Shown one piece after another: positions 1-51,548 of a stretch of 51,548 nucleotides of DNA. Source of the stretch: Escherichia phage SKA49; the sequence record NC_079180.1. One strand, given 5' to 3'. Within the stretch, counting starts at the first letter, position 1; each line of letters opens with the position of its first letter. The translations under genes were made by a program, and so were the position numbers. The notes beneath the pieces were generated by a model, which had not been told where the DNA came from, made no database searches, and was given only the letters and a program-made list of their open reading frames with translations.

Positions 1-170
1 GCTCACTTCGCCCGCTTTATATTATAATTTTATTTTGGGCCAGCGGGGAGGGGAAGTTGTGACATTATTATTTTAAAATTTTTTATCTCCGAGGAGGGGA
101 AGCCCAACGTCCTATCGGACTTAAAATACGGTCCCTACCCCAACTTTTTCCTACAGCCTATCGGCTTTCA
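1..170. repeat. left-end non-coding repeat region
   Basis: G-rich motif GGGGAGGGGAAG at about 45-56 and GAGGAGGGGAAG at 91-102; 12-bp palindromes GTCCTATCGGAC (109-120) and AGCCTATCGGCT (155-166); AT-rich runs; no ORF. Confidence 0.35.
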
Positions 171-250
171 AACAACACCAAGTTAGGCGCTTCGCTTATA
201 AGTCAAGGTCAAAGGCAATCAGAGTACGCTGTTGTAATGTGCTAGTCTCA

Positions 251-270
251 CCATTAGTTGGTTGTGATTA
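251..270 (+). promoter_or_regulatory. variant of the phage promoter-like motif (CCATTAGTTGGTTGTGATT) upstream of the RNAP gene
   Basis: Matches the core CATTAGTTGG-TGTGA shared by seven other intergenic copies; lies 60 nt upstream of the RNAP start. Confidence 0.4.
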
Positions 271-330
271 TGAATAGGCTACGCAAGTCTAATCCGTTTC
301 AGTTAAATCATAATCAATTGGAGACTTATC

Positions 331-2445
331 ATGACTAACGAAGAATACCGTGCACTGGCTGCTGATGGCGCTCGCTTGAAAGAAGAAGGCCAAGGTTGGA
401 AAGACGTGCTCGATACGATGGACCGTTGCAACCAGATGGTAGATGAAATCACCTCCGTTACACAAACCGAAACTAAAACCGAAACTAAATTGGAGACTCG
501 CAAAATGACAACTATCTCAACTCAAACTATCAAATCCGTTGTCCCTGCTATCACTGCTCTGGTATATCGTGCCAAAGAGAAACAGAACTACATGCAGCCT
601 CAGACCTGTGCTATTGCTGCTCTTGCAATCTTTAAGATGATGACCTCATTCACTCGTGATGACGTTGTTCCTGCCATTGCGATGGTTGAGCTGGCTTCTG
701 CTTCTATTGCTGATGCCAACCGCTACAACAACGACTTGAAAGCAATGCACTATGTTGACCCAGCTATCAACCTCATTGGTCTGGCTAAGCACTTCGGCTT
801 CATTACCATGAACGAAGACAAGTCATTCCAACAGACTGACACATGGGTTGAACTGGTTACAACCAAAGACACAGCAGTGCCATTCACTGAGCGTGTTACA
901 TCTGAATCTCGTCGCAAGCCTTTCGTTAAAGGTGGCAAAGTTAAGCCATCCAAAACTTTGAAAGCTGCAATCGAATTCCTGCAAGATACTGAGTACCATG
1001 TGGAGACTGAGATGGTTCGCATCATCCAGTCCATGATTGAACAGCGTACTTATGGTGGCTTGCAGATGCCAGAAGCAATCCAGACTGAACTCCATGTTTG
1101 GAACAATGCTGTAGCAATGATGAATCAGGACACACTGTATTCTGACTACTTTGCTGACAACCGTGGTCGCCTGTATCATGTAGCATGTGCTGGTCCTAAC
1201 CCACAATCCTCTGACTTTGCTCGTTGCTTGTATTCTCACAATGTTGAGAACATCGTTAAGAAGTTTAACGAAGATGGTTCTACTACCATTGCATACAACA
1301 TGTTCATGGCAGAGCTGGAAGATATTTCCGGTGGTGAATGGTGCAGTGCTAAACGTCTGACCTATGTTGCTCAGAATCCAGCTGGTTCACTTGCTCGCAT
1401 GATGAACATGCCTAAAGCTGAACGTCCTTCTAAGCCATTCACTTATGTTCGTCTGGCTCTGGATTGGTTCAAGTTTGAGACTACAGGTGAATGCGATTCT
1501 CGTGTAGGCTTTGGCTTAGATGCTAAATGTTCTGGTACTCAATATCTGGCATTCATTGCTGGTAACATGGAAATGGCTCGTGCAACAGGTCTGGTTGATT
1601 CTGAGACTAAAGCATCTGACCCATACCAGTTGAGTCTTCGTGAACTGTTGAAGCTGCTGGACAAGTCTTCAATGAAACCTTCTGTTGAAATCATGGATGA
1701 ATTCTTGAACCCTAAAGCTGGTCGTAAGTTTATCAAAACTCCGTACATGGCTATTCAATATGGTGGTGGTAAAGCTGCATTAACTGGTTCATCTGACTTC
1801 ATTAGCTACATGACAGAAGCGCTCCAGATTCCTATGGAGAAAGCTGAGGCATTTGCTGAACTGTGTGTAGAAGCAATCCATAACGCATTGGGTGCTAAGA
1901 TTAACATGTTCATCGAGAAAGCTGCTGATGCTGCATACAACCGTTGTGTTGAACTCAACAAAGAGTACATCACATATCGTCACACTGATGGTCAGGTTGT
2001 AATGAAGCCTTGCTTCCCATCTCGTGAAATCTGTGAGGCATTCAGCATTCGTGTTGACTCACAAACTCGTGTTATCTTTGGCCAGATTCAGGAGAATAAG
2101 CCTTGGACCATTCGTGAATCCAATCCAACTAAAGAAGAATTCAAGCGTACTTTCGTTGTTAACTACATTCAAGGTATTGACGCATTGGTTGCTCGTACTG
2201 TTGCAGTTAAGGCTAAAGAAGCTGGTCTTCGTGGCTTCACTTCAATCCATGATTGTTTCCGTTGCTGTCTGGCAGATGCTCCACGTATGATGGAAGTTAT
2301 TCGTGCAGCATATGTTGAAATCTTTGTAACCAACAATCAATTCGAGAATCTGTCTAAGCAACTCGGTGGCATTCAGATGTATCATGAGAACATCGTAACC
2401 GAAGAGCTTCTGATGAGCGAACACGCTTACTACTTCTGTCAATAA
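331..2445 (+). CDS. T7-type single-subunit DNA-dependent RNA polymerase (compact, 704 aa)
   Basis: Motif A-like FGLDAKCSGTQYLA, motif B-like GRKFIKTPYMAIQYGGG, motif C TSIHDCF with catalytic Asp; GGAG RBS before ATG. Confidence 0.85.
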   Translation: MTNEEYRALAADGARLKEEGQGWKDVLDTMDRCNQMVDEITSVTQTETKTETKLETRKMTTISTQTIKSVVPAITALVYRAKEKQNYMQPQTCAIAALAIFKMMTSFTRDDVVPAIAMVELASASIADANRYNNDLKAMHYVDPAINLIGLAKHFGFITMNEDKSFQQTDTWVELVTTKDTAVPFTERVTSESRRKPFVKGGKVKPSKTLKAAIEFLQDTEYHVETEMVRIIQSMIEQRTYGGLQMPEAIQTELHVWNNAVAMMNQDTLYSDYFADNRGRLYHVACAGPNPQSSDFARCLYSHNVENIVKKFNEDGSTTIAYNMFMAELEDISGGEWCSAKRLTYVAQNPAGSLARMMNMPKAERPSKPFTYVRLALDWFKFETTGECDSRVGFGLDAKCSGTQYLAFIAGNMEMARATGLVDSETKASDPYQLSLRELLKLLDKSSMKPSVEIMDEFLNPKAGRKFIKTPYMAIQYGGGKAALTGSSDFISYMTEALQIPMEKAEAFAELCVEAIHNALGAKINMFIEKAADAAYNRCVELNKEYITYRHTDGQVVMKPCFPSREICEAFSIRVDSQTRVIFGQIQENKPWTIRESNPTKEEFKRTFVVNYIQGIDALVARTVAVKAKEAGLRGFTSIHDCFRCCLADAPRMMEVIRAAYVEIFVTNNQFENLSKQLGGIQMYHENIVTEELLMSEHAYYFCQ

Positions 2446-2453
2446 GAGAAACA

Positions 2454-2497
2454 GGGCTGTCATCGAAAGGTGATGGCCCTTTCTTTATTCTTTATTA
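2454..2497 (+). terminator. intrinsic terminator after RNAP gene
   Basis: Hairpin GGGCTGTCAT-CGAAAG-GTGATGGCCC (with G-T pairs) followed by TTTCTTTATTCTTTATT. Confidence 0.55.
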
Positions 2498-2525
2498 ATT
2501 AAATCCTTTAATTCCCAATATTCAA

Positions 2526-3300
2526 GCAATATTGCTGCATGTAATATTGTTTCAATATTCGACATTAGTTGGATGTGAAGTAACAGAATACGGAGAAGTA
2601 TTCCGCATGTCATGTTGAATCATTCTAGAAACATTCAGCATGTCAGCTTTGAGTTACAGCGTTGTAATGATGTGGCAATCATTGAACTCCCTGGGAAGGC
2701 CACCTACAGTTCCAGCAACCATGACTTAGAGTAGGAATATCTATCCGAAACTTGGACTTCATTGTAGTTTGGTGTGCTTCATCGTGAGAAAGGTAGCGAC
2801 AACTTTCATAAGCAAATAGCATGACTCATTCCAGACAAACTTGGAACAGCTCATGTAGTACCAGCATGTTCAATTGCGACAATATTGCTCCATCTCCTAT
2901 TATAAAGGCCCACCCACAAGCCGGGAGATAACTTTGGTAATATTGGAACTTTTGGACATGCTTCTTTCTTTCAATCAGAATTCGAAAGAAGAGAAGAGTC
3001 GGAGCAAAGCCTCTCGTTTACACGCAGAAGCCGCCCCGATTTTGAGCAACAAATATTGTGACAATATTGTCGCAGTATGGCATGTAAATATTGCTACAAA
3101 TTGGCATGTTAGAATGTGGCAGAATTGTTAGAGGACTAATCACCTCGAAGATACAATCGTCTGCCAATCTGGCATGTTAATTTTGTAACAGTATTTGTGC
3201 CAATTTCGCATGTAGTATTTAACCCAATATTCTTGCAACCCGCATGAATACTGGCTTTCAGCCAAGCGAAGGCTTTATCATCGCATGTAATATTGTGACA
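2526..3300. repeat. cluster of AT-rich palindromic motifs (CAATATTG, GACAATATTGTC) and GCATGTAATATTG-like repeats
   Basis: CAATATTG or near copies at about 2527, 2545, 2877, 3049, 3058, 3087, 3294, 3302; (G/C)GCATGT(A/T)A-TATT at about 2536, 3080, 3102, 3169, 3205, 3282. Confidence 0.5.
2562..2580 (+). promoter_or_regulatory. phage promoter-like motif ACATTAGTTGGATGTGAAG
   Basis: Conserved about 19-bp motif in an intergenic position, one of eight copies. Confidence 0.55.
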
Positions 3301-3508
3301 ATATTGGGATAAAACCCTTTATTTAAATCATTTAGTTTATTAATTAAATGGTCGGTTTTCTGTACATAGGTATTCAGCTGTTTGTGCCAAATACAAACAA
3401 GTTGGCTGCTTCTACAGAACTCCAGTGCTACAAATGTTCGTGCCAATCTGCTGCAATTTATCTCATTTGGCGGGGTAATATTGTATTAGGTTGGTACGTC
3501 ATTATTTC

Positions 3509-3529
3509 GATTAGTTGCATGTGAATAAG
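3509..3529 (+). promoter_or_regulatory. degenerate promoter-like motif GATTAGTTGCATGTGAATAAG
   Basis: Partial match to the ACATTAGTTGGATGTGAAG consensus, upstream of the early gene cluster. Confidence 0.3.
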
Positions 3530-3717
3530 ACCAAATCTCTGTAAATTCTGTGACAGATTTTAGAGAGATTATGTCTCCAAGCTAATCATTGTAGTTTTTA
3601 GACACTTTGTGTGTCACATATATAGCCTGTGAAAAACGTGTGGTATATTGCTGGATTGCGACGCGCCCACCAGACTAGGAAGTCACTGACGGCGGCACAC
3701 ACAGGAATACTATATAA

Positions 3718-3780
3718 CTCCCTACAACTTTAAGGTGGATTGAGGTAAGACAAGACCTCCACAATCGTTCTGTAGGGAGT
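3718..3780 (+). promoter_or_regulatory. 9-bp inverted repeat (CTCCCTACA ... TGTAGGGAG) with nested GTGGA/TCCAC stem, upstream of first early gene
   Basis: Perfect reverse-complement arms 3718-3726 and 3772-3780 separated by 45 nt; candidate RNA structure or processing site. Confidence 0.35.
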
Positions 3781-3804
3781 TTTCCTTTAACTTTGGAGAA
3801 TAAA

Positions 3805-4053
3805 ATGGATACTGTGATTAAAGCTGCTTGTTTCAAAGACCTGCAAGATGGTCAAATCTTCACTGTTCGTTCTGTGAAGTGGATTAAAGTAAATGAGTCA
3901 GATAAGTACAATGCTGTAAAGTTCTTTGATTCAAGCAAAGCATGTACTTTTAGCGACAATATTGTTGTCAATATTGAAGTCGAATTAATTCCTGATGACG
4001 GAGATGTTGAAGCAACTCTTCGTAACACTGCTGGATATAACGAGGGATTCTAA
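3805..4053 (+). CDS. hypothetical early protein (82 aa)
   Basis: ATG with GGAG RBS 6 nt upstream; track ORF begins at TTG 3793. Confidence 0.6.
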   Translation: MDTVIKAACFKDLQDGQIFTVRSVKWIKVNESDKYNAVKFFDSSKACTFSDNIVVNIEVELIPDDGDVEATLRNTAGYNEGF

Positions 4054-9487: not shown

Positions 9488-10033
9488 ATGGAAAACCAAA
9501 TTAATCAAGCAGTAGAACAGCTTAAGTCCTGGCGTAGAGATGAAACTTTATTGGTTCGTTTCTACACAGGCGAAACTAATTCTGAATTTGTAGATGCGTG
9601 GATTGATGGACTAGCATGGCGCCTTTATGATTTCAGTATGTCCGAATATTTGCATGAAGAATATGGCATTGAGTACCCTGCAACAGGAACTTATGACATA
9701 ATTGAATCAAGAGATGAAGATGTTACAGAGGTTTGCTTTGTTGATGGCCTGTTCAGCCTACGCAAGTATGACAAATTCAATGAGCTTTTAAATGACACTG
9801 ATTTGTTTGTAGTTCTTGCTGCATTCCGTAGTGGTGAAATTGACATTTTCACTGTGAGCAGTTTGAACGACATGTTCATTACTCGTTGTGATTCAATTGC
9901 AGACTACTTCAAAAATTACGATGGGATAGAAGTTCCAGACCATCTTCGTCCATATATTGATTGGGATGCAATCACCAAAGATTACGGCAGTGACTATATC
10001 TTCTCTGAAGGAGTATTGTTCTTAAATGCGTGA
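9488..10033 (+). CDS. hypothetical protein (181 aa; alternative start 9476)
   Basis: Track ORF 9476..10033; GGAG precedes second in-frame ATG at 9488. Confidence 0.5.
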   Translation: MENQINQAVEQLKSWRRDETLLVRFYTGETNSEFVDAWIDGLAWRLYDFSMSEYLHEEYGIEYPATGTYDIIESRDEDVTEVCFVDGLFSLRKYDKFNELLNDTDLFVVLAAFRSGEIDIFTVSSLNDMFITRCDSIADYFKNYDGIEVPDHLRPYIDWDAITKDYGSDYIFSEGVLFLNA

Positions 10034-51470: not shown

Positions 51471-51548
51471 AATAAGTAAGTTAAATATTACTTATTCCCA
51501 ATATTGCTACAATATTAAGAGTAATATTAGGAATGCGTAAAGTTCAAA
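51471..51548. repeat. right-end non-coding region with 9-bp AT-rich hairpin and three AATATT(G/A) motifs
   Basis: AATAAGTAA-GTTAAATA-TTACTTATT hairpin; CCAATATTGCTACAATATTAAGAGTAATATTAGG echoes the 2.5-3.3 kb cluster. Confidence 0.35.

Follow-up and report, generated by a model that had tools for sequence, protein, structure and literature searches.

Conserved hairpins at a probable concatemer-processing signal on the left terminal-repeat boundary of Escherichia phage SKA49

The described systems closest to the locus treated here, the non-coding left part (positions 1-330) of the genome record of Escherichia phage SKA49 (NC_079180.1), are the concatemer junction of T7 and T3 and the direct terminal repeats (DTRs) of the family Chaseviridae. 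The T7/T3 concatemer junction and the duplication of the terminal repeat were reportedly treated by Molineux in 2006 and by Chung and Hinkle in 1990, and T7 processing involves a hairpin-ended intermediate. Models for duplication of the T7 terminal repeat are summarised in PMC4281155. Chaseviridae have linear, non-permuted genomes with terminal repeats of ~3 kb (ICTV profile, PMC12842549). Their packaging signals have not been defined experimentally, and the choice and duplication of ends in phages with kilobase-long DTRs are poorly understood outside T7. In what follows, the window is the whole stretch of 51,548 nt and all coordinates refer to it unless a relative is named.

From comparison with related genomes, we consider it reasonably probable that this region, on the left side of the concatemer junction, serves as a signal for site-specific processing of concatemers at the DTR boundary. 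The first 3 kb of the window share 93-96% identity with the Carltongylesvirus (Chaseviridae) Escherichia phages TH26, Bp10, Mangalitsa, JL1, ST32 and others, and on this comparison the window is a genome of that genus. A phage-collection search returned no record identical to the window and none above ~96% identity. The elements at and around the left boundary are:

29-56, + strand: copy 1 of a T-run and G/purine-rich tract (GGGCCAGCGGGGAGGGGAAG), an extra copy present only in the lineage of the window, Bp10 and TH26
57-102, + strand: 46-bp unit made up of TTGTGACATTATTA, a T-run and copy 2 of the G/purine tract (GAGGAGGGGAAG), by alignment the counterpart of the single tract of other relatives
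103-108, + strand: CCCAAC spacer that separates the purine tract from hairpin 1, conserved in the multi-genome alignment
109-120, + strand: hairpin 1, GTCC-TATC-GGAC, the inferred left DTR boundary with a cut within 113-121, placed by the termini of relatives and stem covariation
121-154, + strand: left-terminal box TTAAAATACGGTCCCTACCCCAACTTTTTCCTAC, which would form the first bases of the packaged genome (cross-genus conservation 0.81-0.89)
155-166, + strand: hairpin 2, AGCC-TATC-GGCT, ~45 bp inside the repeat, kept in 18 genomes

The evidence includes the ends reported for six relatives. They are as follows, with ^ marking the cut:

Mangalitsa: repeat of 3,234 bp from PhageTerm (PMC6753284); left end GTCCTATCGGAC^TTAAAATACGG (window 121), right end ...GAAAGAAGAGAAG^ (window 2996)
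JL1: repeat of 2,995 bp, both copies in the record with 0 differences; left end GTCCTAT^CGGAC, right end GAAGAAGTC^GGAC
4HA13 (Sabourvirus): repeat of 3,120 bp from PhageTerm; left end GGAC^TTAAATACGG, right end ...ACCGGACA^
Y2 (Loessnervirus): repeat of 2,608 bp, both copies in the record; left end GTCCTGTCG^GAC, right end ...GGCATCC^GGG
PM1 (Suwonvirus): repeat of 2,665 bp, both copies in the record; left end CTCCCTATCG^GGAG, right end ...GAGAGTC^GAAC
Myduc (Myducvirus): repeat of 3,202 bp from PhageTerm; left end CTCCCTAT^CGGGAG, right end ...GGTGAC^GGAC

Window 109-121 aligns to the first bases of all six genomes, or to the bases just before them, and window 2984-3004 aligns to the ends of the Mangalitsa (3234) and JL1 (2995 bp) repeats. 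In these six records from five genera the left end falls, within 5 nt, in the loop or the 3' arm of the hairpin 1 homologue; in both Mangalitsa and 4HA13 it reads GGAC^TTAAA. By homology, the packaged DNA of SKA49 most likely has its left end at window 113-121 and its right end at ~2996-3000, with a repeat of ~2.9 kb. The initial annotation had suggested a terminal repeat or packaging signal within 1-330. The association with a terminus stands, in that the left DTR boundary lies by homology in hairpin 1 and the G-rich tract accompanies it, whereas the end would be at ~113-121 rather than at position 1, and the predicted repeat is not contained in 1-330, as it takes in the whole RNA polymerase gene.

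Hairpins 1 (GTCCTATCGGAC) and 2 (AGCCTATCGGCT) share the 8-mer CCTATCGG, which is found nowhere else in the window on either strand. Its expected count is 0.47 and two or more copies appear in 9 of 100 shuffles, so the count alone is weak evidence; the case for the hairpins rests on the proximity of the two copies and on their conservation. All four motifs of the initial annotation (the two G-rich repeats and the two hairpins) are found on re-reading where it placed them and with the sequences it gave, and the 46-bp spacing of the latter pair is correct. Its term palindromes does not fit: each is a 4-bp inverted repeat round an asymmetric TATC loop (the reverse complement of GTCCTATCGGAC is GTCCGATAGGAC), and the dyad symmetry across the whole site that would mark a palindromic operator is not present. 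Lack of conservation had been named as a possible refutation, and we find the hairpins and the purine tract kept across genera. The observation is real and non-random.

Across 18 related genomes, hairpin 1 takes the forms GTCC-TATC-GGAC, GTCC-TGTC-GGAC, CTCCC-TATC-GGGAG and ATCCC-TATC-GGGAT. Hairpin 2 always lies 42-48 bp downstream, with stems AGCC/GGCT, GAAGCC/GGCTTC, CAGCC/GGCTG, TAGCC/GGCTA, GCC/GGC and ACC/GGT. MAFFT misaligned hairpin 1 in PM1, Myduc and Faunus, and sequences were anchored on the loop before pairs were counted. In the loop-anchored alignment 83.5% of cells are paired and changes on both sides are seen in 6 of 11 pairs; hairpin 1 pairs switch from GC to UA and from UA to CG, with zero unpaired cells. 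The covariation score was matched by none of 500 shuffles, and the pairing signal drops sharply when the partner column is slid by one to three places. These patterns argue that the hairpins are selected as structures, with support that is good, not overwhelming, because few independent evolutionary events are involved.

The hairpins lie in the best conserved non-coding block across genera. In a profile of nine genomes, conservation peaks at 0.76-0.89 at window 85-180, with values of 0.3-0.6 on either side, and GGTCCC is invariant within the 121-154 box. In Erwinia phages the match to the 330-nt query is limited to 64-181. An uncultured lineage (L080 at 9700-9835, and L096; IMG/VR 3300018411_000096 and 3300018412_000782) reads GTCCTATCGGAC at each of the two hairpin positions, which are 38 bp apart, and has a T-run and G-tract upstream as in the window. 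A scan of IMG/VR for AAATACGGTCCCTA gave mostly chance matches and no new contig beginning at the hairpin (the L142 contig is PM1), and a scan of 1-3600 with the Rfam 15 covariance models gave only a chance-level miRNA match at 3087-3197.

Upstream of hairpin 1, GGGGAGGGGAAG (45-56) and GAGGAGGGGAAG (91-102, one mismatch) are the sole two matches in the window at up to one mismatch, and the GGGGAGGGGAAG site is among just three places in 51.5 kb with a 12-mer of at least 9 G. Mangalitsa, GJ1, SA91KD, JL1, PYps23T, 4HA13, Y2, PM1 and Myduc have one T-run and one purine-rich tract, followed by (C/T)CCA(A/C)C and hairpin 1. The second, diverged 46-bp unit (AT-rich segment, T-run and purine tract) is carried by the window, Bp10 and TH26 but not by Mangalitsa, SA91KD, JL1 or GJ1, which makes the G-rich direct repeat, on the aligned sequences, a lineage-specific 46-bp duplication and not a functional pair. 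The duplication is too diverged for Tandem Repeats Finder, which reports no tandem repeat in 1-400 at a minimum score of 30. A T-run and then a purine tract precede the left DTR boundary in five genera, and the distant Shantouvirus ZPAH14 (3,373-bp repeat) has TTTTTTATTTT...GGTAAGAGTGGGGTGGGGGAGGG ~12 nt before its left boundary, a region with no CCTATCGG hairpin. By these alignments the character of the tract is deeply conserved. A G-quadruplex reading of the G tract was rejected, as Myduc, Y2 and JL1 do not have enough G runs.

At the other end of the predicted repeat we identified three elements:

2892-2929, + strand: two-tier stem-loop ATCTCC-TATTATAAA-GGC-CCACCCACAA-GCC-G-GGAGAT, 67-71 nt before the inferred right boundary
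2984-3004, + strand: purine tract GAAAGAAGAGAAGAGTC^GGAG, the inferred right DTR boundary with a cut at ~2996-3000, by homology to the DTR ends of Mangalitsa (...GAGAAG^) and JL1 (...GAAGAAGTC^)
3350-3366, + strand: GGTCGGTTTTCTGTACA motif, 350 nt past the right boundary

For purine content, the tract at 2984-3004 is one of the top 8 20-mer sites of the window. The right cut reported for each mapped relative falls at a CGGA(C/G)-like motif, corresponding to the 3' half of hairpin 1 (GTC^GGAC in JL1, GAC^GGAC in Myduc, CCGGACA^ in 4HA13, TCC^GGG in Y2, GTC^GAAC in PM1 and AG^AGTCGGAG in Mangalitsa). Ranked by upstream purine content among the 49 + strand CGGA[CG] sites, the right boundary is first and the left boundary is tied second. 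The purine tract and CGGA-like motif shared by the two boundaries are thus supportive of related cut signals, and not unique to them.

The outer stem of the two-tier stem-loop covaries (ATCTCC/GGAGAT, AGTCC/GGACT, GTTCC/GGAAC and TGTTTCC/GGAAACA), and its inner GGC/GCC is GCC/GGC in Myduc. Homologues lie 60-76 nt before the mapped right ends in five genera, and the base of the structure, TCCTAT...CGGGA, looks like a hairpin 1 whose loop has been enlarged. On the minus strand, 2892-2929 resembles a weak intrinsic terminator. Motifs of the form GTCGGT(C/T) flank the terminal repeat on both sides: in the window and in Mangalitsa, 4HA13, Y2 and PM1, which represent four genera, they lie at a fixed 350-366 nt past the right end, and in relatives GTCGGTC(A/G)ACTG copies lie ~175-345 nt before hairpin 1, in a piece that is absent from the window. 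We take GTCGGT(C/T) as a candidate for the site that the machinery of packaging or replication recognises. The copies in relatives are at 967 and 1003 in L008, 1262 and 1298 in L006, 2966 in L011, 3471 in L013 and 3031 in L025. Two other candidates near this end were set aside: a 7-bp long-range pairing of TTGCTCC (2885-2891) with GGAGCAA (3001-3007), which is not kept in 4HA13, and a strong hairpin at 2958-2996 as a family feature, which is confined to Carltongylesvirus with a weaker analogue only in Y2.

The initial annotation called 1-330 a left-end control region. Bp10 and TH26 read through it unbroken (...GAATTGTGGCAATT^GCTCACTTCG..., ^ here marking the start of the record) and have ~250 further bases between the last bases of the window (...GCGTAAAGTTCAAA, 51548) and position 1. 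Judged by these two relatives, position 1 is an assembly break and not a genome end, because their sequence continues through it with ~250 bp more. In relatives, the absent ~250 bp contain long runs of T, the motif GTCGGTC(A/G)ACTG twice and three or four copies of the GAGACTnGAATTGTnnCAATATTA unit, and the record is probably an assembly broken at this homopolymer-rich stretch. The window holds a single collapsed copy of the repeat, minus ~250 bp of the junction, and opens in the middle of an array:

1-28, + strand: clipped tail of the upstream GAGACTnGAATTGTnnCAATATTA array, including TATAAT at 23-28, by continuity with Bp10 and TH26

One unit of the GAGACTnGAATTGTnnCAATATTA array is annotated in phiEcoM-GJ1 as a putative sigma-70 promoter. 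The comparison flags the junction gap of ~250 bp in this record, and tells annotators where to open such genomes.

Downstream of the hairpins are the polymerase gene and sequences that may control it:

249-268, + strand: copy of a putative phage-RNA-polymerase promoter motif (CACCATTAGTTGGTTGTGAT), with its core at 253-267, 63 nt before the polymerase ATG
277-300, + strand: second conserved non-coding island, GGCTACGCAAGTCTAATCCGTTTC (cross-genus conservation 0.78-0.81), found in Y2, PM1, Myduc and 4HA13
331-2445, + strand: single-subunit RNA polymerase gene, entirely within the terminal repeat (Pfam PF00940, E = 1e-19)
253, 2564, 3510, 6997, 10337, 12468, 13407, 20312, 25898 and 29874, + strand: copies of ATTAGTTGNNTGTGA from a motif scan

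The encoded polymerase is 99% identical to that of Bp10. In its open reading frame (ORF), 331-504 encode an in-frame N-terminal extension of 58 codons that has a ribosome-binding site of its own and is seen only in the group of Bp10, 2KOFFS, TH26, Mangalitsa, TH23 and TH33. Most relatives, among them ST32, GJ1 and PYps23T, use a start equivalent to a second ribosome-binding site and ATG, at 505. The GGCTACGCAAGTCTAATCCGTTTC island is part of a second peak of the conservation profile, at 265-300; it lies downstream of the promoter-like motif in Carltongylesvirus and upstream of the same motif in Y2, PM1 and Myduc.

The initial expectation that the region must hold the host-polymerase promoter for this gene is not supported. 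A scan for sigma-70 promoters (-35/-10 with 16-18 nt spacing) on the + strand of 1-330, run alongside a terminator scan, gave no match; the complete upstream region of Bp10 has no sigma-70 consensus promoter either, and the best candidate on relaxed inspection by hand has 7/12 matches. The only published sigma-70 candidate, phiEcoM-GJ1 364-393 (one of the GAGACT...ATATTA units), maps to the clipped left edge of the window, outside the repeat. In contrast to this expectation, 253-267 has 0 mismatches to a motif that the annotations of GJ1 and SA91KD (EF460875 and OL960574) give as a putative phage promoter. All 10 matches to ATTAGTTGNNTGTGA in the window are on the + strand, a count that 0 of 100 shuffles reach, and seven of them, including that at 253, lie outside + strand ORFs of at least 60 aa. 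We treat 253-267 as a candidate phage-polymerase promoter only, because promoters of the family have not yet been identified experimentally according to the ICTV profile (PMC12842549). Dense GCATGT...AATATTGTGACAATATTG and CAATATTG repeats, together with inverted repeats, occupy the non-coding 2500-3980 after the polymerase gene and recur at 51498-51530. These GCATGT-type repeats could be early promoters or binding sites.

In the mechanism that we propose for the left boundary, the T-run, the purine/G-rich tract, the CCCAAC spacer and hairpin 1 would act jointly as the cis-signal for the left-end cut. A terminase or accessory nuclease would nick or cut replicated concatemers at the hairpin 1 signal, and a second cut, marked by the purine tract with its CGGA(C/G)-like motif, would be made at the right boundary. 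Nicking and strand-displacement synthesis would then duplicate the one copy of the repeat in the concatemer, in the way put forward for T7. Hairpin 2 and the 121-154 box would lie at the extreme left of the virion DNA, where they probably serve as a second site for the same factor, in end protection or as a replication element; this role is the least certain part of the proposal.

We hold as a doubtful extension that one nuclease cuts 5' of CGGA(C/G) at both ends of the repeat, guided by the purine tract and, on the left, by the TATC hairpin, and coupled to transcription from the promoter-like array outside the repeat. It would be a long-repeat analogue of the polymerase-dependent processing of T7 that uses a different signal. 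If so, early expression of the polymerase from injected DNA would be confined to the gene copy at the right end, because all sigma-70-like candidates lie outside the repeat.

Several points weigh against a processing signal at hairpin 1. The ends of SKA49 are placed wholly by homology. For three of the six relatives the termini were predicted by PhageTerm, 4HA13 is not fully independent, its genome having been re-aligned to Mangalitsa prior to analysis (PMC9699118), and the Y2 and PM1 ends are as given by the sequence records. Reported cuts vary by up to 5 nt between relatives, and no protein is tied to the hairpin 1 site. The stems are only 4-6 bp, and the folding energy of 100-175 as DNA is not distinguishable from that of shuffles (z = -1.2), nor is that of 100-345 as RNA; the case for structure is carried by the covariation, since the folding energies match those of shuffles. 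The composite of purine tract and CGGA(C/G) recurs, with three other sites scoring at least 12/14. A conflict comes from the Yersinia phage PYps23T (MW147598), a close relative with the same hairpins and a 2,339-bp repeat in its record. Its boundaries, taken from polymerase chain reaction (PCR) across ligated ends plus restriction data (PMC8762354), lie inside the promoter-like motif (ATTAGTTGGA^CGTGAA and ATTAGTTGGA^TGTGAA, in general ATTAGTTGGA^NGTGAA), and correspond to window ~262 and ~2573.

If PYps23T is representative, the true DTR boundaries would lie in the promoter-like motifs, and the 85-180 block would be ~140 bp outside the repeat, acting for example as a replication origin or transcription signal. 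The reported NdeI fragment of 4.8 kb fits this placement slightly better (4.78 kb predicted, against ~5.1 kb for cuts at the hairpin), while the extra MbiI band of ~1.3 kb falls between the predictions for the motif (1.11/1.23 kb) and for the hairpin (1.38/1.44 kb). The PYps23T junction is positioned exactly in a 10-nt sequence common to both sites, which is the product expected of PCR template switching, and in six other records, which span five genera, the end is at the hairpin; four of these ends were determined independently of one another's coordinates. We conclude that our reconstruction of the digests does not dismiss the PYps23T result, which is either a real difference or a PCR artefact, and we regard boundaries in the promoter-like motifs as unlikely for SKA49. 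The comparison brings to light a disagreement between published results that could be settled from reads already available.

The hairpins might instead act in RNA, as leader structures of a polymerase mRNA begun at upstream promoters, with effects on stability, processing or read-through. Every element lies upstream of the polymerase gene and on its coding strand, covarying stems are typical of RNA structure, and in Y2 a third small hairpin with a TTCG loop follows. Set against this, the left copy of the repeat begins inside hairpin 1, leaving half of the gene copies without it; the short stems, their non-significant folding energy and the lack of an Rfam match offer no help; and the block is 150-220 nt from the start codon with the promoter motif downstream of it, so that transcripts begun there would exclude the hairpins. 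A function in RNA is in our view quite improbable. We give slightly less credence still to the two CCTATCGG sites being duplex-DNA operators, for a phage repressor or a host factor controlling polymerase expression: upstream of a key early gene, an invariant 8-bp core repeated at a distance of ~4.3 helical turns would suit such a role, but the core is not dyad-symmetric, the flanks covary so as to keep pairing and not identity (which base read-out by a dimer would not need), and in virions the first site would be split by the genome end. That the motifs are chance similarities in an AT-rich spacer, as the 8-mer count in shuffles and the lack of a Tandem Repeats Finder hit could suggest, is contradicted by compensatory changes across at least five genera in what is locally the best conserved non-coding block, and has almost no probability. 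Processing at hairpin 1 is the reading that we retain. A covarying hairpin at the mapped end in five genera, with a purine tract and CGGA at both boundaries, provides concrete cis-elements to mutate.

Hairpin-directed nicking sites are known from HUH endonucleases and rolling-circle Rep proteins. A break that maps to a short conserved hairpin, in its loop or 3' arm, is a resemblance only, since the end formed at this locus is double-stranded and the nuclease to be expected is terminase. The T7/T3 concatemer junction is similar: immediately left of the repeat it has promoter-like elements and AT-rich sequence, and the left edge of the repeat contains sequence that can form a hairpin. It differs in repeat type: that of SKA49 would be ~2.9 kb and coding, and so is not the short non-coding repeat of 160-230 bp found in T7/T3. 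The T7 class II pause motif HATCTGTT has four matches in the window, which is below chance expectation, and none lies within 5 kb of either boundary; any coupling to transcription here would use a different signal because this motif is absent near the boundaries. T7 gene 1 is not known to be read by any but the host polymerase, whereas a phage-type promoter-like motif is found here directly upstream of the phage's own polymerase gene. This motif (253-267) matches the putative phage promoters of phiEcoM-GJ1, reportedly described by Jamalludeen and colleagues in 2008, with no mismatch, and its other copies are mostly intergenic and all on the + strand. The virion also differs from that of T7 in being a myovirus, and the terminase is said to resemble T1-like enzymes (PMC8762354). 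In the published Chaseviridae accounts consulted we did not find the architecture of hairpin, purine tract and CGGA at the two boundaries described, nor the covariation of the hairpin; a DTR boundary as such is a known property of the family, and published records of its DTRs give coordinates only. These DTRs (Mangalitsa, 4HA13, Myduc, vB_EamM-Y2 and PM1) are of the same family and at the same genome position, with boundaries homologous to 109-121 and 2984-3004 and the polymerase gene inside the repeat.

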